DNA from: a virus
Taxonomy: Duplodnaviria > Heunggongvirae > Uroviricota > Caudoviricetes
Strand: one strand, 5' to 3'
Length of the DNA: 9,480 bases
IMG/VR virus record: IMGVR_UViG_2671180778_000012
Coordinates: 1 to 9,480 of that record
Positions 1 through 9,480 of this stretch are shown piece after piece. Both the position numbers and the translations under genes were made by a program. Within the stretch, counting starts at the first letter, position 1; every line of letters starts with the position of its first letter. The notes under the pieces are model-generated. The model was not told where the DNA came from. It did no database searches and was given only the letters and a program-made list of their open reading frames with translations.

Positions 1-717
1 ATGGATGATAACAATATATCGGTCAAACAATATATTATTTATTCGGTTATGAATGATTTAATTACTGGTGGGCGAGAATCTTCAGTTTTAAACGTTCCTG
101 TATCTTTATCCCCGAAAAACTCCACCATAGAGGCTATAAAACGCTTGATTGATGATATAAGAGATTATTTTTATAAATCAAAATATCCAACAAGAGAATT
201 TCTTTTGTGTTATGGTTTAGAATCAAGTGAAATCGAGCAATATCCTATTGAATTAGCTGCAAAAATGGATTCATGTGGTTTTTTAATATTTGATAGTAAA
301 CTATCTTGTCAGGTTGTCGATACTTTAAATTCAGCAGTTGCATTGTACCATGTCGGAATGCGTAATCACGCAGACAAACTTACTAGAGTTGGTGTTGAGT
401 TATTGCTTAATGATTTTTTTGAAGAAATTATATCGAACCATGAAAAAGATAAAAAAATAAAGGATGCTTTATCCTTATCACAGAAAGAAAAAGCGCGCAA
501 ACCAAGAAATCATTATTACAATGAAGTTATGCACGTAATTAAACTAACATGGGAAAAGTACCCTAAAGCCAGTAAAACAGGTTTATTGAACGAGCTTTCT
601 GTTTACTACCATGGGAAAGTAAGTAAAAACACGCTAGATAGATGGATTAAAGAATCAGGGGCACAACCACCAAAGCCTGATAAATACTCTTCGTTTGAGC
701 TTGTTCACCCCCAATAG
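1..717 (+). CDS. Hypothetical AT-rich protein (238 aa) with C-terminal helix-turn-helix-like segment; possible accessory/regulatory cargo
   Basis: Complete ATG..TAG ORF. Strongly AT-rich (first 60 nt about 23% GC) against about 50% GC for the rest of the window. C-terminal segment GLLNELSVYYHGKVSKNTLDRWIK resembles an HTH. No family recognised by eye. Confidence 0.6.
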   Translation: MDDNNISVKQYIIYSVMNDLITGGRESSVLNVPVSLSPKNSTIEAIKRLIDDIRDYFYKSKYPTREFLLCYGLESSEIEQYPIELAAKMDSCGFLIFDSKLSCQVVDTLNSAVALYHVGMRNHADKLTRVGVELLLNDFFEEIISNHEKDKKIKDALSLSQKEKARKPRNHYYNEVMHVIKLTWEKYPKASKTGLLNELSVYYHGKVSKNTLDRWIKESGAQPPKPDKYSSFELVHPQ

Positions 718-798
718 CTGGCTACGGTATTTTAATAGCTGGCTATTGAGGCTAAATAACTGGTAACAGCCCCACAGCAACTGGCTATTGGGCTAAAA
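714..798. repeat. Direct repeat array: CTGGCTA core at 718, 739, 781; 18-bp repeat CTGGCTATTG(A)GGCTAAA(A) at 739-756 and 781-798
   Basis: Read directly. Core copies are offset by 21 and 42 bp, i.e. whole numbers of helical turns. Array lies between the ORF1 stop and the AlpA-like gene. Confidence 0.75.
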
Positions 799-822
799 AC
801 AAAATACTCATTGATTGATATT

Positions 823-856
823 TATCACCGTTGTTACTTAGACGTACACGGTGATA
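823..856. promoter_or_regulatory. Inverted repeat TATCACCG-N18-CGGTGATA overlapping the RBS/start region of the AlpA-like gene; candidate operator
   Basis: Arms at 823-830 and 849-856 are exact reverse complements. Possible -35 TTGATA at 815-820 just upstream. No convincing -10, so promoter assignment is tentative. Confidence 0.4.
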
Positions 857-859
857 GAT

Positions 860-1069
860 ATGAATTTAAAGAAATCTGATTTATCAACTGACCGCCTTAC
901 ACGTGCTGAAGCTGCTGCCTACCTTGGCGTTAACAATCAAACACTGGCGAACTGGGCGTGTACTGGCAAGGTAAAAATCCCTTTCCATAAACTTGGTCGC
1001 AAAGTGCTGTATATGCGCACTGATCTCGATGCTTATCTTGCATCCACTCGCAGAACGCAGACGGTGTAA
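860..1069 (+). CDS. Excisionase-family HTH DNA-binding protein (AlpA/Xis/Vis-like), 69 aa
   Basis: Sequence LTRAEAAAYLGVNNQTLANWACTGKVKIPFHKLGRKVLYMRTDLDAYL fits the excisionase-family (AlpA/Xis-type) DNA-binding domain pattern. ATG at 860 is preferred over the in-frame GTG at 851. GGTGA lies 5 nt upstream of the ATG. Confidence 0.75.
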   Translation: MNLKKSDLSTDRLTRAEAAAYLGVNNQTLANWACTGKVKIPFHKLGRKVLYMRTDLDAYLASTRRTQTV

Positions 1070-1182
1070 GGGGGAGTGATGGCACATAAAACAAAGGCGA
1101 CCGGGGGCGGTCGCCAATGGATACACACTAAACTTGAACGCATCACCAACAATGCCACATTTGCGGCTGGTGGGCAATGTGA

Positions 1183-1371
1183 TCAGTCAGATTTGGTTCG
1201 TTCCAAGGTTTGCAACGAGAGCTTTTTCCTGTGCTCTTTAAGGAATTTCTCAAGAGCAAAAGCACATGGCGCGAATCTTTCTGATTCATGCTCTATCTTT
1301 CTGCGCCGTCTTTTCCGTGCCGGTGATAATGTTTTGGTCAATTCTTTATCGGTCATTGTGTTGTCCTGCAT
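1183..1371 (-). CDS. Small basic hypothetical protein (62 aa), uncertain
   Basis: ORF downstream of and co-oriented with the 1414..1719 gene. Charged, protein-like composition but no clear Shine-Dalgarno. Confidence 0.25.
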   Translation of the reverse strand: MQDNTMTDKELTKTLSPARKRRRRKIEHESERFAPCAFALEKFLKEHRKKLSLQTLERTKSD

Positions 1372-1413
1372 AGCAATGCGCCGTAATACCTTACACCACG
1401 GCGCTGATGGTGA

Positions 1414-1719
1414 TTACTCTGGTTCTTTGGTCTTGCGACGCTGGAGTTCTTCGCGTGCAACGGTGACAAGCTGCCCGATTTCTTCCGCTGCTTTGATGCC
1501 GATTTGTTCGACCTTAGCCAGGGCATCCAGTGACGACACAAGGGGATTTTCTCCGCTGCCTTCTGCTTGGCGGCGGGCTATTTCTCCGCGCATGGCGGTT
1601 ACGATAAATCCGGCATTGCTTTCGCCGTCCAGCTTAACGGATTCCATCCCTTGCATAACATCTAGTGGGACTCTGACAGTTGTCAGTTGTGATTTTGCGT
1701 TTTTGTTAGCCGTTGCCAT
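1414..1719 (-). CDS. Hypothetical 101-aa protein, possibly a ribbon-helix-helix-type DNA-binding regulator
   Basis: AGGAG Shine-Dalgarno 8 nt upstream of the ATG (plus-strand CTCCT at 1728-1732). About 40% of codons start with G, a strong coding signature. No Cys, E/A/K-rich. N-terminal SQLTTVRVPLDVMQGM resembles an RHH beta-strand plus helix; this fold assignment is inference. Confidence 0.65.
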   Translation of the reverse strand: MATANKNAKSQLTTVRVPLDVMQGMESVKLDGESNAGFIVTAMRGEIARRQAEGSGENPLVSSLDALAKVEQIGIKAAEEIGQLVTVAREELQRRKTKEPE

Positions 1720-1737
1720 TTCTGAAACTCCTAATCA

Positions 1738-1818
1738 TCGGTGTGTTTCAGTATACACAAAAAAAGAAATACAAAAAGCCTTGACGTGTGTTTCATGCGC
1801 TCATAACATGAAACACAC
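1738..1818. promoter_or_regulatory. Divergent promoter/operator region: 12-bp perfect inverted repeat GTGTGTTTCATG-N9-CATGAAACACAC (1786-1818), extra half-site GTGTGTTTCA (1741-1750), candidate sigma70 promoter (-35 TTGACG 1781-1786, -10 TAACAT 1804-1809)
   Basis: Palindrome and half-site copies read directly. Promoter hexamers have 17-bp spacing and overlap the palindrome. Region lies between the minus-strand gene start (1719) and the + strand small-ORF operon. Confidence 0.55.
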
Positions 1819-1916
1819 CGAAAGGATTGTTGAAATACAAAGAGCAACGCCCCGCAGTGCCGGAAACACATACGGGGCGTCTAACCACCAACGATAACGA
1901 GAGTATCGAGGCAGCT

Positions 1917-2120
1917 ATGAGAAATCATACCATACACCCGCAAGGGCGGGACTCGTACAACCTGAATAAATACATCTGGCGTTTTATCGCCCTGAGCACG
2001 GCACAACCGCGCGTGATTACCATTGAGGCCAGCAGCGAACAGGAAGCACGCCAGCAATCCCCGGCTGGCTGCGTGATGGTATTCGCCGCCCGTATTCGTC
2101 AGGGGGGGGGCCATGCCTGA
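1917..2120 (+). CDS. Small hypothetical protein (67 aa); faint resemblance to P4-type Icd-like proteins is a guess
   Basis: ATG at 1917 preceded by GAGG 5 nt upstream. The annotated upstream start at 1827 is TTG and unlikely. Ends ...FAARIRQGGGHA; the Gly codons are the G9 tract. Confidence 0.4.
   Translation: MRNHTIHPQGRDSYNLNKYIWRFIALSTAQPRVITIEASSEQEARQQSPAGCVMVFAARIRQGGGHA
2102..2110. repeat. G9 homopolymer tract at the junction of two small ORFs
   Basis: Nine consecutive G at 2102-2110, immediately before the ATG at 2113 and inside the last codons of the 1917..2120 ORF. Confidence 0.95.
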
Positions 2121-2433
2121 TATGTCAAATTACCAGTACCTGATTAATCCGCATTTTAACTGTGAGCATGATATTGCTAAAAAGGTTTATTCCGCTGCGG
2201 ATGGGGCTACTGACAATATATCAATGGCTGTTGCGTCAATTGGTAGCCTGATGTGGCATGCGTCAGAAAATGAGGACTATGACGAAAAGGCCATGCGCAT
2301 TGATATGGGTAATATTGGTTTGTTACTGGCAATGCTTGGACATTTTGATATTTCGTTACGGTGCACCATTGAAAATGCCACAGATGCATTAAATGCTATA
2401 AAGAAAGCGAATACTGATTCAAATCGGGGATAA
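2113..2433 (+). CDS. Hypothetical protein (106 aa)
   Basis: ATG at 2113 overlaps the upstream stop (ATGCCTGA). Alternative in-frame ATG at 2122. No family recognised. Confidence 0.5.
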   Translation: MPDMSNYQYLINPHFNCEHDIAKKVYSAADGATDNISMAVASIGSLMWHASENEDYDEKAMRIDMGNIGLLLAMLGHFDISLRCTIENATDALNAIKKANTDSNRG

Positions 2434-2439
2434 ATAATC

Positions 2440-2739
2440 ATGAGAACATATTTATCTGGCTTGACTGCCAGCGGTTATGCACACCCCCAAATTATCCCCG
2501 GCGCTATTTATCTGGATAAGAACGGTAACAGAGTAACGGTAAAAGAACTGATGTTTGACCGTGTGTATTTTATTCGTGATGGCTATTCATTTCATAGTTC
2601 GCTGAACGTGGAGATCTTTATTAGCAGATTCAGGCGGGAAATCCCGCTTTCCAGAAAAAACCATGTGTCACGTGTGAATGTGGATAAAAAACTACAGGAA
2701 CTGAAAAACATGATTGCCGCGTGGAGAGAGCAGAAATGA
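2440..2739 (+). CDS. Hypothetical protein (99 aa)
   Basis: ATG at 2440 with GGGGA 9 nt upstream. Stop TGA overlaps the primase ATG (ATGA at 2736-2739), suggesting translational coupling. Confidence 0.5.
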   Translation: MRTYLSGLTASGYAHPQIIPGAIYLDKNGNRVTVKELMFDRVYFIRDGYSFHSSLNVEIFISRFRREIPLSRKNHVSRVNVDKKLQELKNMIAAWREQK

Positions 2740-4553
2740 AAAAAGCGCCAAATTTAAAACACCAGCCGCGTGACAAAATGACGGAAGTCATCATTTTTGC
2801 GGGTAGTGATGCGTGGGCACATGCGAAGCAGTGGCAGGAACAGGACGGGCGACTGGCTGGCGATAACGTGCCACCTGTCTGGCTTGGAGAGCAACAACTT
2901 GCCGAACTGGACAACCTGCAAATCGTACCGGACGGACGCTATCGCGTGCGTCTCTATCAGGCGGGGTTATTGCGTCCGGGGCTTGTTAATACCATCGGGC
3001 AGAAACTGGCAGTGGCAGGTGTCAGGGATGCTGATTATTACCCTGAAGGAATGCACAGCCAGAAACGGGAGAACTGGCGCGAATATCTGGAACGTGAACG
3101 GGCAGAGCAGGCGGAAAAGAAAAAGGTAGTTGAACTGCCTGTAAAGAAAAAAGAGCGGGTAAAAGACGATAACGCGTCATCACTGGCGCTTAACCAGATG
3201 GGAGCAAGTCAACGCGGCGAAGTTCTCCTGGCACATTATGGCGGTGAACTGGCGATTCATGCTGACTCTGACACTGTTCACCATTACAACGGCGTTGTAT
3301 GGGAGCCAGTACAGGATAAAGAATTACAGCGAGCTATGGCACAGATTTTCATTGATGCGGAGATCAGCTATTCGCAGAACGCCATTAAATCGGCGGTCGA
3401 TACCATGAAGTTAAGTTTGCCTGTAATGGGGAATACAGCCCGTAACCTGATTGGATTCAGTAACGGGGTATTTGATACCAGAACAGGTAATTTTCGGGAG
3501 CATAACAAAAACGACTGGTTGTTAATTGCCAGTGAATTACCTTTCAGCCCACCAGCAGAGGGGGAAACGCTGGCAACACATGCGCCGAATTTCTGGAAGT
3601 GGTTACGCCGTTCGGTGGCTGAGAATGACCGCAAGGCGGATCGCGTACTGGCTGCATTATTCATGGTGCTGGCGAACCGGTACGACTGGCAGTTATTCAT
3701 TGAGGTAACAGGTCCAGGGGGAAGTGGTAAAAGCGTGATGGCGGAGATTTGCACCATGCTGGCGGGTAAGGCCAACACAGTATCGGCAAGCATGAAGGCG
3801 CTGGAAGATGCAAGGGAACGCGCGTTAGTGGTTGGCTTTTCGCTGATTATCATGCCGGATATGACCCGCTACGCTGGTGATGGGGCAGGGATTAAGGCTA
3901 TTACAGGCGGTGACAAGGTGGCAATTGACCCGAAACACAAAGCCCCCTACTCAACGCGTATTCCGGCAGTAGTGCTGGCGGTTAACAATAACGCCATGTC
4001 ATTCAGTGACCGCAGCGGGGGGATCTCACGTCGTCGGGTGATATTCAATTTTTCGGAAGTTGTACCGGAGAACGAACGTGATCCAATGCTGGCGGAAAAA
4101 ATAGAAGGTGAGCTGGCGGTAGTGATTCGCCATCTGCTTACACGGTTTGCTGACCAGGACGAAGCCAGACGCCTGTTATATGAGCAGCAGAAATCTGAAG
4201 AAGCACTGGCGATAAAGCGAGAGGGGGATTCGCTGGTGGACTTCTGCGGCTATCTCATGGCGTCGGTAATGTGTGATGGCCTGTTAGTGGGTAATGCTGA
4301 AATTGTGCCATTCAGCCCACGCAGGTATCTCTATCATGCCTATCTGGCTTATATGAGGGCACATGGGTTTGGTAAACCTGTAACACTGACGCGCTTCGGT
4401 AAAGATATGCCGGGGGCAATGGCGGAATATGGCAGGGAGTATATGAAACGGAAAACGAAGCACGGTTTGCGTTCAAACGTGACACTGACGGAGGAATCAG
4501 AAGACTGGATGCCATCATGTGTATCGGTCACTAATGACGATAGCAAAAATTAA
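2736..4553 (+). CDS. P4 alpha-type phage/plasmid primase-helicase (D5_N / primase C-terminal region plus SF3 P-loop NTPase)
   Basis: Walker A GPGGSGKS. Motifs NGVFDTRTG and RRRVIFNFSE are typical of the P4-family primase C-terminal / D5 helicase region. ATG at 2736 preferred over GTG at 2721 (GGAGAGAG 5 nt upstream). The N-terminal ~250 aa carry no motif I recognise. Confidence 0.85.
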   Translation: MKKAPNLKHQPRDKMTEVIIFAGSDAWAHAKQWQEQDGRLAGDNVPPVWLGEQQLAELDNLQIVPDGRYRVRLYQAGLLRPGLVNTIGQKLAVAGVRDADYYPEGMHSQKRENWREYLERERAEQAEKKKVVELPVKKKERVKDDNASSLALNQMGASQRGEVLLAHYGGELAIHADSDTVHHYNGVVWEPVQDKELQRAMAQIFIDAEISYSQNAIKSAVDTMKLSLPVMGNTARNLIGFSNGVFDTRTGNFREHNKNDWLLIASELPFSPPAEGETLATHAPNFWKWLRRSVAENDRKADRVLAALFMVLANRYDWQLFIEVTGPGGSGKSVMAEICTMLAGKANTVSASMKALEDARERALVVGFSLIIMPDMTRYAGDGAGIKAITGGDKVAIDPKHKAPYSTRIPAVVLAVNNNAMSFSDRSGGISRRRVIFNFSEVVPENERDPMLAEKIEGELAVVIRHLLTRFADQDEARRLLYEQQKSEEALAIKREGDSLVDFCGYLMASVMCDGLLVGNAEIVPFSPRRYLYHAYLAYMRAHGFGKPVTLTRFGKDMPGAMAEYGREYMKRKTKHGLRSNVTLTEESEDWMPSCVSVTNDDSKN

Positions 4554-4566
4554 ACTTATGGAATAA

Positions 4567-4795
4567 CTGTTCACCACTGTTCACCCTGTCATAAATATCT
4601 TTTATATCAGTATATTATAGGGTGAACAGTTATTTATGAACTGTTCACCAAACTATTCACTGTTCACCTTTTTGATTGTTTATTGAGCTTCAAGGGTGAA
4701 CAGTGGTGAACAGTTGGTGAATAGTTTTTGTGAAACTGTTCACCCCTTAACATTATGAATTAAAAGAGAAAATATCAAAAGGTGAACAGGTGAAG
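4567..4795. repeat. Iteron array, putative replication origin: 9-bp CTGTTCACC / GGTGAACAG in 9 perfect and 2 degenerate copies, flanking AT-rich segments
   Basis: Forward copies at 4567, 4577, 4641, 4660, 4736; reverse copies at 4621, 4695, 4705, 4781; degenerate copies at 4652 and 4716. Tandem pairs are 10 bp apart. AT-rich 4591-4620 is flanked by inverted copies. Array begins 14 bp after the primase stop. Confidence 0.65.
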
Positions 4796-4925
4796 GGTTA
4801 AAACGCAAAAATTTTAATTTACTGCTGTGAGATAAAGCCTATGACAGCGAAGCACACCAAAACAACAGGCGGGGAATGATGATCCGTACGGGGATAACAT
4901 ACCGTTTTAAGCAACGAGTAACAGA

Positions 4926-4948
4926 AGCCGGAGCAATCCGGCTTTTTT
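4926..4948 (+). terminator. Intrinsic terminator-like hairpin AGCCGGA-GCAA-TCCGGCT followed by a T run
   Basis: 7-bp perfect stem, GNRA-type GCAA loop, T run to 4948. Confidence 0.55.
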
Positions 4949-4950
4949 AT

Positions 4951-5022
4951 GGGTCCTCCCGGTGTAGTGACCTGCCACGGGGCGGGAACGGCGCGGAAAA
5001 AGGCTGGTTTTTGCATTTTCAT
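4951..5022 (+). repeat. Conserved 72-bp non-coding element, copy A (second copy at 7487-7558)
   Basis: Hand alignment to 7487-7558 gives 66 of 72 identical positions. Both copies start 2 nt after a terminator T run. Confidence 0.8.
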
Positions 5023-5209
5023 GGCGGCGGCAGCATGTGTGATAATTTATTGATAATTAAAAGTTATTTCTGTTTTCACCTGTACAATATTTTTTTCTCC
5101 CTGTCATTAGACCAGTTTGCAATTAATTGAAATATATAAATAAATCTGTTTTTCACCTGCCAGGTGGAGTTGCCTGTGTCAAAACGTGTTCAGATGGCGG
5201 GATATTTAT

Positions 5210-5232
5210 GCCGGATTTTCTCCGGCTTTTTT
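5210..5232 (+). terminator. Intrinsic terminator-like hairpin GCCGGA-TTTTC-TCCGGC followed by T6
   Basis: 6-bp stem and T6 read directly. Stem sequence matches the core of the 4926 hairpin. Confidence 0.5.
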
Positions 5233-5334
5233 GTGTCTGAATCTCATTAATCTGTTTTTATGATAGAAATATGTTTATCTACCACTTTTATCGATCAATA
5301 ATGTGCGCAGTTTAGTCAGTAAGAGGAAGTTACT

Positions 5335-5544
5335 GTGAGTTGTATTAATGACCTGAACACGGGCGATATCAGGGGTGGTTCCGTTCATCTGGATGCGCAG
5401 ACCGTTATGCGCCTTAAGCAGTACAGGATCGACCATATAAATCATCATCCTGACCAACCATTACCAGGTGTGGCGCAGATTGTCAGACATGCCGTAAACA
5501 CCTGGCTTAATCAGAATGGTTTTGCATCGGTGGGGGAACAATGA
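5335..5544 (+). CDS. Small hypothetical protein (69 aa), possibly ribbon-helix-helix-like, translationally coupled to the protease-capsid gene
   Basis: GTG start with AAGAGGAAG 5 nt upstream. Stop overlaps the next ATG (ATGA at 5541-5544). SVHLDAQTVMRLKQY resembles an RHH strand-helix; fold assignment is inference. Confidence 0.5.
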   Translation: MSCINDLNTGDIRGGSVHLDAQTVMRLKQYRIDHINHHPDQPLPGVAQIVRHAVNTWLNQNGFASVGEQ

Positions 5545-7454
5545 ATCGCTGGTACACCATTAAGGCGGCGGATGTTCGCGGAGCGGCGGATATATCTATC
5601 TATGAGGAGATTGGCGGCTTCGGTGTTACTGCAAAGCAGTTCGCGGAAGACCTGAAAGCCCTTGGCGATGTTTCACATATCAATCTGAGGATCCATTCAC
5701 CAGGTGGTGATGTGTTTGAAGGCATCGCCATCTATAACCTGCTACGGAATCATCCGGCAGACATTACGGTTTATATCGATGGTGTTGCGGCTTCAATGGC
5801 TTCGGTGGTCGCAATGGCTGGCGATCGTGTTGTGATGCCGGAAAACGCCATGATGATGATACATAAGCCGTGGGGTATCTCTGGCGGAAATGCTGGTGAT
5901 ATGCGTGATTATGCTGATTTGCTGGATAAGGTGGAAACCGTGTTAGTCCCTGCTTATGCCAGAAAAACGGGCAAATCAGCACAGGAAATTACCGCCATGC
6001 TGGAAGATGAAACCTGGATGGACGGGAAAGAATGCCTTAAGCACGGTTTTGCTGATGAATTGTTGCCATCCGTCAGAGCAATGGCGCGAATTGAATCGAA
6101 GCGCACAGGAGATTTTTTACATATGCCGGAAACCATTAAAGGAATGATTACACCGCCACAGGGAGCGGCAAATATTGCTGGTAATGAACAGAAACGCATC
6201 AATGGAATAAGTGAAGTGTTTAGCCTGTTCGGCAGTCGTTACGACGGGATCAAAATGGCGTGTCTGGAAGATGCATCATGTACACCGGAAATGGCCCGTG
6301 AAAAGCTGTTGAACGAGCTGGGGCGCGAGTCCACGCCATCCAATAAAAATACCCCGCCTCATATCTATGCCGGAAACGGAAACATAACAGGTGATGCAAT
6401 TCGTCAGGGGCTTTATTCCCGTCTTGGGTATGAACGGCCTGAACGAGGCAACCCTTACGCGATGATGAGTCTTTTTGAAATGGCCCAGGCATCACTGGTT
6501 GATCGTGGTATCACTGTGAGCGGTTTTATTAATCGCTCGCAGGTTGTTAATGCGGCTTTTACACACAGCAGCAGTGATTTTTCTCATATTCTGGCTGGTG
6601 GGGCTGAAAAATCTGTACTGAAAGGCTGGCAGGACAGCGGCGAAACGTTCCAGAAATGGACGCGTACCGGTTCGCTTTCAAACTTTCATGAAGCAAAGCG
6701 CGTTGGTCTGAATGGTTTTTCAAAGCTGGATAAAGTACCGGAAGGTGCGGAATATAAATACATCACCACCAGCGATAAAGGTGTACCTATTGCGCTGGCC
6801 ACGTACGGGAATATATTTTCCGTTACCCGTCAGGCCATTATCAACGATGACCTGACCCAGTTAACTACAATCCCCATGGCGATGGGACGCGCAGCTGCCA
6901 GAACAGTTGGCAATCTGGTTTATCTCCTGTTAACCAGCAACGGCAAGTTTACGGATGGTAAAGCGTTATTCCATGCCGATCATAAAAATCTTATTGCGAA
7001 GGATATGGACATGGAGGGGCTTAACGAAGCCCGTAAGCTGATGCGCCTCCAGGAAGACGCTAACGGCGATTCGCTGAATATTACCCCTGCATTTGTCCTG
7101 GTCCCCGCCGCGCTGGAGTCTGCCGCACATCGCGCCATTCTGTCATCGTCATCACTCTTTCCGGTTGATGGCGTGGGCACTATCAATCAGAACCCCGGCA
7201 TCATTAACGTGGTGAAAGATATGGCGGAGGTAATCGTTGAGCCACGTCTTGATAAAGCCAATAACAAGGAGTGGTATGTGGCAGCGGCGAAGGGTATGGA
7301 CACGATAGAGGTCGCTTATCTTGATGGTATTGATACGCCATATCTTGAGGAGCAGGAGGGCTTTACTGTTGATGGCGTCGCCTGGAAGGTGCGCATAGAT
7401 GCAGGTGTCGCGGCCCTCGACTATCGCGGATTACTGAAATCGAGTGGAGCATGA
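5541..7454 (+). CDS. ClpP-like (S14) prohead maturation protease fused to HK97-fold major capsid protein (637 aa)
   Basis: N-terminal ~190 aa has ClpP-type motifs (GVAASMASVVAMAG with active-site Ser context; MIHKPWG with His). C-terminal ~400 aa has the length and composition of an HK97/Mu gpT-like major head protein. GGGGGA 3 nt upstream of the ATG. Confidence 0.8.
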   Translation: MNRWYTIKAADVRGAADISIYEEIGGFGVTAKQFAEDLKALGDVSHINLRIHSPGGDVFEGIAIYNLLRNHPADITVYIDGVAASMASVVAMAGDRVVMPENAMMMIHKPWGISGGNAGDMRDYADLLDKVETVLVPAYARKTGKSAQEITAMLEDETWMDGKECLKHGFADELLPSVRAMARIESKRTGDFLHMPETIKGMITPPQGAANIAGNEQKRINGISEVFSLFGSRYDGIKMACLEDASCTPEMAREKLLNELGRESTPSNKNTPPHIYAGNGNITGDAIRQGLYSRLGYERPERGNPYAMMSLFEMAQASLVDRGITVSGFINRSQVVNAAFTHSSSDFSHILAGGAEKSVLKGWQDSGETFQKWTRTGSLSNFHEAKRVGLNGFSKLDKVPEGAEYKYITTSDKGVPIALATYGNIFSVTRQAIINDDLTQLTTIPMAMGRAAARTVGNLVYLLLTSNGKFTDGKALFHADHKNLIAKDMDMEGLNEARKLMRLQEDANGDSLNITPAFVLVPAALESAAHRAILSSSSLFPVDGVGTINQNPGIINVVKDMAEVIVEPRLDKANNKEWYVAAAKGMDTIEVAYLDGIDTPYLEEQEGFTVDGVAWKVRIDAGVAALDYRGLLKSSGA

Positions 7455-7461
7455 CAACAAG

Positions 7462-7484
7462 GGCGGCGATAGCCGCCTTTTTTT
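7462..7484 (+). terminator. Intrinsic terminator GGCGGC-GATA-GCCGCC followed by T7, 8 nt after the capsid stop
   Basis: Perfect 6-bp GC stem, 4-nt loop, seven T. Confidence 0.7.
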
Positions 7485-7486
7485 AC

Positions 7487-7558
7487 GGGTCCTCCCGGTG
7501 GGGTGGTCTGCCACGGGGCGGGAGCGGCGCGGAAAAAGGCTAGTTTTTGCATTTTCAT
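7487..7558 (+). repeat. Conserved 72-bp non-coding element, copy B
   Basis: 66 of 72 identity with 4951-5022. Lies 154 bp upstream of the Nu1-like gene. Confidence 0.8.
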
Positions 7559-7711
7559 TCGTCATCATCATCTTTCTATGATATTGAATTTTAAGTGTTT
7601 TTATTTTTGGTATGTTAATTTTGCTTGTTTTATGCTCAACATATAGCGCATTTTTTGACCTCTTCTGAAAGTTGTTCGCAAGATGCATGTTTAAAACATT
7701 CTGGAGCGGGT

Positions 7712-8197
7712 ATGGATCGAGAACTGAAAAATCTGATGCTGAACATTAATCAACTGGCGGCGATAGCGGGAATATGTCGTCAGACTGCGGCGGCAAGGCT
7801 GAAAAACATCCAGCCAGCCGGAGGGCATGACAAGCTAAAACTCTATCGGGTGACTGACATTCTGACCTGTTTTCTTGATCTTCCCGTTCCGGCATCACTG
7901 GAAGAAATGGAGCCACATGACCGTAAGGCCTGGTATCAGTCCGAACGTGAGCGCCTCAAGTTCGAACAGGAAACGGCGCAACTCATACCCGCCGATGATG
8001 TGCGAAAAGAGATGGCTATATGGGGGGAAATCGTAAGCGAGGAACTGGCAAAACTCCCCAATATTCTGGCACGTGATGCCGGGCTTAAACCGATGGCAGT
8101 AAACAGAGTGCAGTCAATTATTGACGATTTGCGTAATCAGATTATCAGCCGGATGGTAAAAAATGACGTAGTGAATGAGGTCGCAAAACAGGCATGA
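7712..8197 (+). CDS. Lambda Nu1-like small terminase subunit homologue (TerS / packaging-redirection type), 161 aa
   Basis: N-terminal HTH INQLAAIAGICRQTAAARLKN parallels lambda Nu1 KKQLADIFGASIRTIQNW, recalled from memory. ATG at 7712 with GGAG 5 nt upstream. The upstream TTG at 7625 is unlikely to be the start. Confidence 0.7.
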   Translation: MDRELKNLMLNINQLAAIAGICRQTAAARLKNIQPAGGHDKLKLYRVTDILTCFLDLPVPASLEEMEPHDRKAWYQSERERLKFEQETAQLIPADDVRKEMAIWGEIVSEELAKLPNILARDAGLKPMAVNRVQSIIDDLRNQIISRMVKNDVVNEVAKQA

Positions 8198-8481
8198 TAA
8201 TGACCGAATCTGAAATACTGCGATTAATCCGCTGTGCTGGTGGAATCAGCCAGTTGGCTGACGAACAGGCCGCGCAGCCGGATACAGTCACCGCTGAAAA
8301 TTACGCGCGTGTGGTGGCTGAGGTGATGCGCCGTGACGGTATTGAGCTTAACGGCGTGGATATGCGCAACATACGAACTAGAGTTCTTGAGTTGCTGGCA
8401 TACCGTCGCCGTTCTCAACAACGGAGGGAGAGCGCGAAAAATACTTACCAGTGGAAGAAGCCGGAACGGTTGCAGCGGTAG
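8194..8481 (+). CDS. Hypothetical protein (95 aa)
   Basis: ATG overlaps the TerS stop (ATGA at 8194-8197). No family recognised. Too short to be a large terminase. Confidence 0.45.
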   Translation: MIMTESEILRLIRCAGGISQLADEQAAQPDTVTAENYARVVAEVMRRDGIELNGVDMRNIRTRVLELLAYRRRSQQRRESAKNTYQWKKPERLQR

Positions 8482-8818
8482 ATTCCTGATATTCAGGAAA
8501 ACCACGAATCTGTGGGGTTTACTGGCGCGGTTACGGCGGTGACACGCACCGAGGCAGAACAATTACCGTAGGTTAAAGCGACAGTATTCACACCAAAGGC
8601 AGAAATTAGCGGTTAACGTAACTGACTGATATTTTCGGGAACAGCCAACGGCTGAGGCCGGAGCTATAAAAATAGCTTTGGGTACAGTCCTCAGTTTTGA
8701 GGGATGTTAACCAACTGAATAATAAGCAAACCTCAAAATTGAGTTTTGTATCTGCCTGAGTTATTTCTGTGCTAACTTGCTGATATTCCCGATAGCGCAA
8801 AAGTGCGTTGGCTGGTGG

Positions 8819-8990
8819 GTGAGTTGCAGATCTGCAACTCGACCATGAAATTACGGAAACTACCCGTAGTTTGGGTAGTAAGAGTAACACCCAGATTTTG
8901 GGGCTTACTCGCGATACCCAAATAAAGGGTATCGGTGTAAGAAATATCGTTTCTCATATGTGAGCACCGAGGGCGGAATTCCGCCTTCGG
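8819..8990. other. Cluster of palindromes/hairpins in non-coding DNA: 20-bp perfect palindrome 8821-8840, hairpins 8859-8879 and 8912-8934, near-palindrome 8967-8990
   Basis: All four read directly. 8821-8840 is GAGTTGCAGATCTGCAACTC. Hairpins are ACTACCC-N7-GGGTAGT and CGATACCC-N7-GGGTATCG. 8967-8990 is CCGAgGGCGGAATTCCGCCtTCGG. No long ORF with a coding signature covers this region. Confidence 0.6.
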
Positions 8991-9177
8991 TTACTTATTG
9001 TGCCCATGCACAGGGAGGGGCGGGTCAAATCTCTGTACCCTGACGTCTTCCGGACTGCCAGCCCCATCGTTTTTTTACGCCCGCGAAAAATAAAAATTGT
9101 TTGTATGTGAGTATTGTAGCCAGCAAAAGCTCTTTCTTTAGTGGCTTATTGTTTCTAATAGATTTTGGGAGGTAGAA

Positions 9178-9480
9178 ATGGGAGGCCCAGCGAAAGCTGG
9201 GCCGAGCTTGTTACGCTGTCATTACTTCAGCATGATAACTAAAGCTATACATACTAGCACTACGGCTATTGGGCATAGACCTAAATTGCCAAGTGCTGCG
9301 ATTAAACCTGTAACGGCAATCACACGTGCAGACAGCAGGTCTGAGCCCTTTCTTAAAGTATCCATTGATACCTCCGTCAGGGTTTTTGCCGGTCTCTTGG
9401 AGAGTTGGGGGCAAAAGTTCAGACCCGTAGCACTTTCTTGTTCGCAGGTGAACGGCTGCTACGACCCAACTGTTCTGTAG
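9178..9480 (+). CDS. Hypothetical protein (100 aa), uncertain
   Basis: GGGAGG 5 nt upstream of the ATG. ORF ends with TAG exactly at the window end. G-first codon fraction about 29%. Unusual amino-acid composition and a perfect hairpin right after the ATG leave coding status open. Confidence 0.4.
   Translation: MGGPAKAGPSLLRCHYFSMITKAIHTSTTAIGHRPKLPSAAIKPVTAITRADSRSEPFLKVSIDTSVRVFAGLLESWGQKFRPVALSCSQVNGCYDPTVL

Follow-up and report, generated by a model that had tools for sequence, protein, structure and literature searches.

What does a small terminase do in an element that encodes no large terminase? The question is raised by the window analysed here, a stretch of 9,480 nt (positions 1 to 9,480 of the Caudoviricetes record IMGVR_UViG_2671180778_000012 in IMG/VR) that carries at 7712-8197, on the plus strand, a gene for a 161-aa homologue of phage small terminase subunits (TerS). 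We refer to this gene as terS' and to its product, which begins MDRELKNL..., as TerS'; no open reading frame (ORF) resembling a large terminase (TerL) is found within the window. An initial annotation had described the region as a Nu1-like TerS homologue, coupled to a 95-aa ORF and without a TerL partner, an arrangement said to fit the strategy in which a satellite redirects the large terminase of its helper phage. We propose, with moderate confidence, that TerS' is a satellite small terminase, the cos-recognition subunit that engages the terminase of the helper, and that the helpers are lambdoid phages of the mEp460/phi458/cdtI type, a group that carries a TerS of the DUF1441 family, a gpA-type TerL and a ClpP-protease/capsid fusion.

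The two ORFs had been placed correctly, and profile matches bear out the assignment of the first. The terS' gene lies inside a longer ORF (7625-8197), within which the in-frame ATG at 7712, with a GGAG 9 nt upstream, is the start in all homologues. TerS' matches Pfam DUF1441 (PF07278) with E=1.7e-36 and 125.8 bits against a cut-off of 35.1, over profile positions 1-145 of 147, and PHROG 141, 'terminase small subunit', with E=1.5e-57. DNA and protein searches of phage records with terS' returned the annotated 'terminase small subunit' of mEp460, phi458, vB_EcoS-569R4 and others; TerS' and the annotated phi458 TerS share 65% identity from end to end, and TerS' shares 31% with the TerS of cdtI. 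In both of these phages the gene order is cos, DUF1441 homologue, a 700-aa TerL, a 70-aa gene, portal and ClpP-protease/capsid fusion. A pattern scan of the surroundings of DUF1441 genes, taking one genome per species, gave 80 loci; in 64 of the 80 a gpA-type TerL directly follows the DUF1441 gene, and portal and ClpP-capsid genes come next, which identifies DUF1441 as the TerS of the mEp460/phi458/cdtI-like lambdoid group. The arrangement usual for DUF1441 genes, present in phi458, cdtI and the prophage L086, is missing at terS', where the next gene downstream is the 95-aa ORF in place of a gpA-type TerL.

The label 'Nu1-like' holds in part. TerS' has the N-terminal MerR-like winged helix-turn-helix (HTH) that is common to the lambda Nu1 family, and it resembles lambda gpNu1 in that the gene directly follows cos and, in phages, precedes a gpA-type TerL. 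It nevertheless falls outside the Phage_Nu1 sequence family: Pfam Phage_Nu1 (PF07471) gives no match to TerS' at E<=0.01, while the same model scores 271.9 bits on the lambda-type TerS of a CFT073 prophage, and an hhalign comparison of the DUF1441 alignment with the latter protein was not significant (probability 0.8%, E=0.07, 23 HTH columns). The label is thus valid at the level of fold and gene position only, and the sequence family is DUF1441.

The absence of a large terminase is not an effect of where the window ends. In E. coli HS13-1 an island 98% identical to the window has a 475-aa integrase upstream and runs about 100 nt past the window end to a tRNA-Ile gene, after which mug and rpoD follow; there is no terL immediately beyond the window. 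In addition, a complete E. coli assembly contains a circular 'plasmid' (NZ_CP148328.1, 1-10790) that is a whole sister satellite, from the integrase to the homologue of the 95-aa ORF, and no TerL, portal or tail module is found in its 10,790 bp. This circle is presumably the excised, replicating form of the satellite. The description of terS' as a TerS gene without a large terminase partner therefore stands, as does the statement that it is followed only by the 95-aa ORF; beyond this the island ends at tRNA-Ile.

Consideration of the whole gene content gives insight into the kind of element that carries terS'. The order is a 238-aa ORF of low GC content, an HTH_17 regulator, a YlcI/YnfO gene on the opposite strand, DUF4222, primase and iterons, followed by a first cos site (cos-A), a 69-aa ORF, the ClpP-capsid fusion, a second cos site (cos-B), terS' and the 95-aa gene (plus strand). 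The core gene set of a phage-inducible chromosomal island (PICI) is present, with regulator, primase, capsid fusion and terS in the window and an integrase directly upstream in relatives 98% identical to it. Genes for TerL, portal, tail and lysis are lacking, the size class is about 10-15 kb and integration is site-specific, at tRNA-Ile next to mug. The hallmarks of capsid-forming PICIs (cf-PICIs), namely their own TerL, portal, head-tail connectors and HNH nuclease, are absent from both the window and the complete circular relative, and the compact layout recurs at four integration sites. The element is, judged by these features, a Gram-negative PICI-type phage satellite of about 11 kb at tRNA-Ile. 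Its presumed induction and packaging by a helper phage, and interference with that phage, have indirect support in the excised circular copy and in cos sites identical to those of prophages. A terS gene is a core PICI component in the published definition and in the SatelliteFinder PICI model (10.1101/2022.09.14.508007), some Gram-negative PICIs have been noted to possess terS homologues (PMC6092414), and PICIs at tRNA-Ile2 that bear a CLP_protease gene have been catalogued previously (Tommasini, Mageeney and Williams 2023; PMC10111431). In a satellite, a TerS homologue unaccompanied by TerL is to be expected, and the island type is already catalogued; redirection of the helper terminase by a satellite TerS is likewise the standard PICI model (10.1101/2022.09.14.508007; PMC6092414).

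The packaging region of the element includes two cos sites. These were located through an 80-nt direct repeat (4943-5022 and 7479-7558, 91% identical) and through the ends of phage records. The repeat aligns with the cosQ-cosN part of lambda-type cos, and both sites align with the lambda-type cos of the PICI EcCICFT073 and of the CFT073 prophage; the function of EcCICFT073 cos1 has been shown experimentally (PMC6092414). The records of phages cdtI and Tritos start at the base corresponding to window position 4980 (GGGCGGGA.CG...), and the end of the cdtI record holds the upstream half of the repeat, which places cosN at 4980-4991 in cos-A and at 7516-7527 in cos-B. The lambda cosN itself (GGGCGGCGACCT) could not be located in the window, even with 2 mismatches allowed, because cosN here is GGGCGGGA[A/G]CGG. 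The first site, cos-A (4951-5183, plus strand), comprises a cosQ-like GGGTCCT (4951-4957), cosN GGGCGGGAACGG and a cdtI-type cosB, and is 92.6% identical to bases 1-204 of cdtI. The second, cos-B (7487-7711, plus strand), comprises a cosQ-like element (7487-7493), cosN GGGCGGGAGCGG and cosB (7528-7711), is 98-100% identical to the cos of the prophages L086 and L088, and lies directly upstream of terS', the same placing as in phages.

The two cosN sequences differ by one base, and the cosB types differ within the window, that of cos-A being cdtI-like and that of cos-B being like those of prophages with a TerS of the type designated P0010. Two co-oriented cos sites flank the ClpP-capsid gene in all eight satellites examined (the window, L001, L005, L090, L093, L094, L095 and L096), compared with one cos in phages. 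At the end of cos-A the first 20 or so nucleotides of a cdtI-type terS are kept (GTGGAGTTGCCTGTGTCAAA, compared with ATGGAGTTGCTTATGTCAAA in cdtI), after which the homology stops (window 5164-5230), and a terminator-like hairpin follows at 5210-5226. This remnant looks like the scar of a deletion that ran from terS to portal. The presence of two cos sites of different type may widen the range of helpers available to the satellite.

Comparison of terS' with its relatives in prophages and satellites shows that the gene is a chimera of a DNA-recognition half from helper phages and a tail half confined to satellites. The 5' cassette (7712-7985, plus strand; codons 1 to about 91) encodes the MerR-like winged HTH and a conserved central helix. 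Its protein is identical to that of the prophage TerS P0010, in which residues 1-93 are 100% identical to TerS' but are joined to a phage-type C-half ending ...TEAGADDEEELQQEE. The 3' half (7986-8197, plus strand; residues about 92-161) encodes a helical domain that is specific to satellites and whose tail (RMVKNDVVNEVAKQA) is not acidic. In P0006 and P0015 two other N-halves are joined to the C-half of TerS', again ending ...RMVKNDVVNEVAKQA. The genomic context of P0010 is that of lambdoid prophages, with lysis genes, cos, DUF1441, TerL, portal and ClpP-capsid, while P0006, P0015 and the PI7 copy are found in satellites, at four integration sites and with different integrases.

The same junction is seen at the DNA level. 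From 7485 to about 7985, an interval that takes in cosN, cosB and codons 1 to about 91, the window shares 98-100% DNA identity with the prophage L086 (353/360 bases, or 98%, for 7520-7939), and the first 93 codons of terS' differ from those of L086 by 7 synonymous and 0 nonsynonymous changes. Downstream of this cassette the identity to phages drops to 55-60% and synonymous sites are saturated (pS 0.74). In the satellite L090 the cassette is that of phi458 and the downstream sequence is that of the window. Conserved sequence borders the cassette at both ends, cosN to the left and the RKAWYQSERERLKFEQE coding segment to the right, and we infer that these served as the crossover points. Taken together, these observations suggest that cosB and the DNA-binding cassette are exchanged with helper prophages by recombination.

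The C-terminal half has a different history. It is kept with three DNA-binding cassettes at four integration sites and is nearly invariant among satellites, and it occurs together with the terminal gene in 191 of 5,426 complete E. coli genomes. Among 50,697 phage records it is absent, the best match being 59-60% over 56 aa. We considered whether the C-half had come from some other lineage of phages whose TerL would match it, and reject this for the phage records searched. The Phytobacter sister satellite and that of an uncultured enterobacterium carry a TerS' with a fully phage-like C-half, which indicates that the divergent allele is specific to the Escherichia lineage.

To describe this half we compared four satellite proteins with 67 phage TerS proteins whose genes precede TerL, ranging from Escherichia through Pasteurellaceae to Halomonadaceae. 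The last 15 residues have a net charge of +1 in the satellites and a mean of -5.75 in the phage proteins (range -10 to -2), so that an acidic tail is present in 67/67 phages. Sixteen positions of the C-half show at least 90% conservation in phages, and four of them are changed in the satellites (A105G, K106E, D117N/S and E120A). Three of these four, K106, D117 and E120, are charged residues 99-100% conserved in phage TerS; in the N-half, 0/15 conserved positions are changed. The core C-half motif, LP-IL-RD--L-P-AV-RVQSIIDDLR, is kept in the satellites. The combination of an acidic tail with K106, D117 and E120, which TerS' lacks, is an empirical rule derived here from the 67 phage proteins. 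In lambda, the part of Nu1 proposed to bind gpA is its C-terminal 40 or so residues (PMC9026076). Residues 1-40 of the phi458 TerL have a net charge of just +4.

These features can be combined into a scheme in which, after induction and replication, the N-terminal winged HTH of TerS' would bind the cosB adjoining its own gene and TerS' would engage the terminase of the helper, leading the helper TerL to nick cosN-B. Satellite concatemers would then be packaged into capsids made of helper proteins, of the satellite's own capsid protein, or of both. Exchange of the cassette with helpers would keep the satellite matched to the helpers of the day, and the C-terminal domain would stay private. TerS' may recruit TerL directly or may act through the TerS of the helper, and we keep both modes. 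Its DNA binding, its contact with the helper terminase and its effect on packaging are predictions from sequence.

Four points weigh against a satellite small terminase of this kind. First, prophages with a full terS-terL operon have the identical cosB and DNA-binding half, which implies that TerS' has no private DNA specificity of the sort conferred by SaPI TerS (of Staphylococcus aureus pathogenicity islands) or by Rpp, and TerS' would thus provide no discrimination between satellite and helper at the DNA level. Second, cos-A is a near-copy of a cdtI-type cos, and helpers of this type should package the element without the help of any satellite protein. Third, terS' is dispensable for the architecture of the element in some relatives: in E. 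coli O145:H28 RM12581 (L098, locus 2855-5283) the order runs from ClpP-capsid to cos and directly to the homologue of the 95-aa gene, with terS' absent, and in strain L73 the terS' copy has an internal stop and is a pseudogene. Fourth, the C-half departs from that of every phage TerS examined, and if the acidic tail is the contact with TerL, by analogy with lambda Nu1, direct recruitment of TerL may have been lost. The proposal that a satellite TerS redirects the helper TerL is thus supported in part. A TerS homologue in a satellite that has no TerL is upheld; a private DNA specificity is not, given the identity of cosB and the DNA-binding half to those of terS-terL prophages; and direct recruitment of TerL is made uncertain by the missing tail and the three changed charged residues.

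The alternative that best survives is that TerS' is uncoupled from TerL and behaves as Rpp proteins do, acting on or through the TerS of the helper, or as a decoy; we consider this possible, though less probable than a satellite small terminase. TerS' could form mixed oligomers with helper TerS via the conserved central helix, or could occupy the helper cosB with its identical DNA-binding domain, and the outcome would be interference with helper packaging, re-targeting of the helper TerS-TerL complex, or both; on this view TerS' would represent an evolutionary stage partway from a captured terS to an Rpp-type protein. The lost acidic tail and the three near-invariant charged residues changed in the C-half, set against none of 15 in the N-half, argue for this, as do the absence of this C-half from the phage records searched, the identity of the DNA-binding domain to that of a prophage TerS, and the architecture of L098. 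The gene also occupies the slot of rppA, downstream of cos and upstream of a c1504-like gene, and Rpp too consists of a winged HTH and a helical domain and has been proposed to act without a TerL-binding tail, with the helper TerS as adaptor (PMC6739421; PMC9026076). However, TerS' has no sequence similarity to RppA (BLASTP E=9) or to RppC (no match among PDB sequences at E<=1), and hhalign aligns it with Rpp over the HTH only (E=0.055). Moreover, Rpp works with a PICI-specific cosB and the cosB here is that of the helper, so a decoy would also block the satellite's own cos-B. The core motif of the C-half is kept, and with it the fold and possibly the TerL contact may persist.

A related suggestion, which we make tentatively and rate as improbable on balance, is that the island represents a distinct hijacking design, in which a modular cosB and winged-HTH cassette, swapped time and again with helper phages so that the satellite would keep reading the packaging signal of whichever helper is current, is combined with a private C-terminal domain uncoupled from TerL. 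Such a protein would be a terminase poison or adaptor and an intermediate on the way to Rpp, possibly shaped by an arms race over cosB.

It is unlikely that TerS' is a passenger, with selection acting on cos-B, mimicry of the helper cos being enough for packaging, and the 5' half of the gene hitchhiking to yield a protein that has no required role. The right crossover is confined to the conserved central segment because there is no homology further downstream, a pattern that hitchhiking accommodates; relatives with cos but without terS', the pseudogene of L73, and other satellites in which cos mimicry alone is sufficient (PMC6092414; PMC11417361) fit as well. Set against this, the C-half is old, as the synonymous saturation relative to phages indicates, yet it is nearly invariant across four sites and three 5' cassettes; the clusters of TerS' homologues consist mostly of intact 161-162-aa proteins; and terS' has retained its start codon, its ribosome-binding site and its translational coupling to the 95-aa gene. 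That terS' is an ordinary phage gene of a terS-terL operon, cut by the window edge or stranded in a decayed prophage, is suggested by its genuine lambdoid TerS family and its place behind cos, and is refuted by the PICI terminal gene that follows it, the end of the island at tRNA-Ile ahead of mug and rpoD, the complete 10.8-kb circular sister without TerL, portal or tail genes, and the recurrence of the compact layout at four integration sites.

Among the closest known systems to the satellite small terminase proposed here is EcCICFT073 (Fillol-Salom 2018, PMC6092414; 2019, PMC6739421), a Gram-negative PICI with the Rpp system. It is the same type of element with the same gene order, and shares the regulator, DUF4222, a primase (48% identity), the replication origin (ori), a capsid gene, two cos sites and the lack of TerL; both also have a winged-HTH gene immediately after a cos and end in a 93-aa gene (73% identity). 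The layout of cos, winged-HTH gene and 93-aa gene is common to the window and to the cos1-rppA-c1504 region of EcCICFT073, in which cosN lies at 7559-7570, rppA at 7660-8094 and the terminal gene at 8374-8655 (locus L004); the order in the window is the same. The two elements differ in their late genes: a gpD homologue, RppA and a capsid gene of the lambda gpE type are found in EcCICFT073, and a full-length DUF1441 TerS homologue and the ClpP-capsid fusion in the window. The second cos has the orientation of the first in the window and is inverted in EcCICFT073, and Rpp uses a PICI-specific cosB in contrast to the window cosB, which is identical to that of helper-type prophages. The TerS proteins of mEp460, phi458, cdtI and the P0010 prophages belong to the same DUF1441 family and share the position behind cos; they differ from TerS' in being followed by TerL and in keeping the acidic tail and K106, D117 and E120.

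In Staphylococcus aureus pathogenicity islands (SaPIs), TerS keeps a TerL-compatible C-terminal part. SaPI TerS, which acts alongside Ppi, resembles TerS' in being a satellite TerS that uses the helper TerL in an element with no TerL of its own (summarised in PMC6092414). It has its own pac-site specificity (PMC6092414), and TerS' shows the reverse, a DNA-binding half identical to the helper's and a divergent C-half; such SaPIs package by the headful mechanism (pac), whereas the element described here uses cos. The Gpi, GpsA and GpsB proteins of the Vibrio PICI-like elements (PLEs; Boyd and Seed 2024, PMC11417361) offer a further parallel, the combination of packaging-site mimicry with small proteins that act on the helper terminase, although these proteins are unrelated, TerL is the target of the PLE inhibitor, and a lytic phage of the pac type serves as helper. 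The tRNA-Ile2 CLP_protease PICIs share the integration site and the ClpP-capsid late gene; a chimeric terS, tail loss and a dual cos are not described in PMC10111431 or 10.1101/2022.09.14.508007, and DUF1441 is not mentioned in the text of either that we consulted. In the literature searched we found no description of the exchange of a cosB and DNA-binding cassette, of a tail-less private C-domain or of a conserved dual cos. As a separate observation, three loci in Halomonadaceae (Billgrantia and Halomonas; L072, L075 and L077) have a DUF1441 TerS homologue without an adjoining TerL; in L072 the gene has a tape-measure-like gene on its upstream side and a SesA-domain ORF on its downstream side, in a layout that is not that of a PICI.

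Gram-negative PICIs carry virulence and defence genes between enterobacteria, and their packaging mechanism has been worked out for the Rpp type only, with lambda- or phi80-like helpers. Islands of the type described here exploit a different and very common lambdoid group, with a DUF1441 TerS and ClpP-capsid heads, which includes cdt-converting and some Shiga toxin (Stx)-converting phages. Candidate helpers can be predicted from their cosB: cdtI-like phages, which match cos-A, and P0010-type prophages, which match cos-B. Should TerS' prove to be a mimic of the helper TerS uncoupled from TerL, it would show how a stolen terS is turned into an interference factor and would suggest an origin for Rpp; should it be a plain TerS, it would be a routine feature of PICIs.

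The gene that follows terS' was put forward in the initial annotation as a candidate accessory factor in the interference by the TerS homologue. This 95-aa ORF (8194-8481, plus strand), which has a basic C-terminus, overlaps the stop of terS' by 4 nt (ATGA); its homologues mostly start at the second ATG (8200), which gives a protein of 93 aa. The gene at the end of EcCICFT073, positioned there after rppA, is 73% identical to it. The 93-aa gene is found after rppA in EcCICFT073 and ETEC1734, after terS' here, right after cos with no terS in O145:H28 RM12581, and after a TerL fragment in KL53. In EcCICFT073, c1503 (rppA) was alone among the cloned post-ori genes in blocking lambda (PMC6739421). 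Its occurrence without terS, together with rppA being the sole lambda-blocking gene among those cloned, argues that the 95-aa gene is not an accessory specific to TerS; it is instead the constant last gene of many Gram-negative PICIs.

Profile searches with the 95-aa protein gave PHROG 1561 (5e-52), to which no function is assigned, and returned no family in Pfam or NCBIfam and no match in a PDB profile search. There are 875 homologue clusters, all unnamed, and the homologues listed are all at least 80% identical, which limits the depth of the alignment. The gene has an omega of about 0.3 relative to a copy at dS 0.31, and the last 38 residues of the protein have a net charge of +10. The AlphaFold2 (AF2) model has three helices at low confidence (pLDDT 62.6). 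A PADLOC match to BrxA (E=0.0077, 14 bits) was judged to be due to chance, derivation of the ORF from the N-terminus of a TerL was rejected for lack of any similarity to TerL, and no similarity was found between its product and that of the phage 70-aa gene. In E. coli KL53 the 93-aa gene stands at the fis site (L099, 4132-5240) directly after a truncated 'TerL endonuclease subunit' fragment and next to IS3; this locus is a decayed island of another late-gene configuration.

The remaining parts of the element are as follows. An AlpA-like HTH_17 regulator or excisionase is encoded at 851-1069 on the plus strand (Pfam HTH_17, 1.4e-11; PHROG 66, excisionase/regulator), and a primase-helicase (D5_N / DUF5906 / Pox_D5), the one compared with the EcCICFT073 primase above, at 2721-4553 on the plus strand. 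Just 3' of the primase gene lies an iteron field (4550-4790) with direct and inverted copies of CTGTTCACC (repeat families D4, D6 and D11; inverted pairs I1, I2, I5, I7 and I11). This is the probable replication origin, a position that agrees with that of the PICI ori (PMC6092414). The 69-aa ORF (5335-5544, plus strand; PHROG 4934, function not assigned) overlaps the start of the capsid gene by 4 nt, and the ClpP-like prohead protease/major capsid fusion itself (5541-7454, plus strand) is 58% identical to its phi458 homologue. Beyond the last gene, about 1 kb with no annotated gene (8482-9480) leads to the tRNA-Ile attachment site and includes a strong hairpin at 8966-8991 with an 11-bp stem; within it, 8773-9096 is conserved among sister satellites at different sites and 8503-8772 is variable. 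A search of the whole window against Rfam at E<=1 gave only a chance match to a plant microRNA, and ARAGORN found no tRNA within the window, tRNA-Ile lying about 100 nt beyond its end.

At the other end of the window, positions 1-717 hold the 238-aa ORF, with a GC content of 31-35% compared with about 50% elsewhere. Searches of Pfam, PHROGs, NCBIfam and PADLOC gave no match to this ORF, which in relatives shares sequence with the 3' end of the integrase gene in an overlap and may be accessory cargo. The stretch 1187-1843 is not common to the closest relatives, which have there a shorter YlcI/YnfO gene and an Icd-like gene. In the window the YlcI/YnfO-family gene encodes 101 aa (1414-1719, minus strand), and a 273-aa ORF that overlaps it (1076-1897, plus strand) has no family match and is probably spurious. 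Some sister satellites carry a tail-assembly gene (lambda gpI-like) and a tail-gene fragment between the capsid gene and cos-B (L001, 16100-16830; L093, 8128-8700; L096, 8473-9173), which points to the capture of late genes from helpers.

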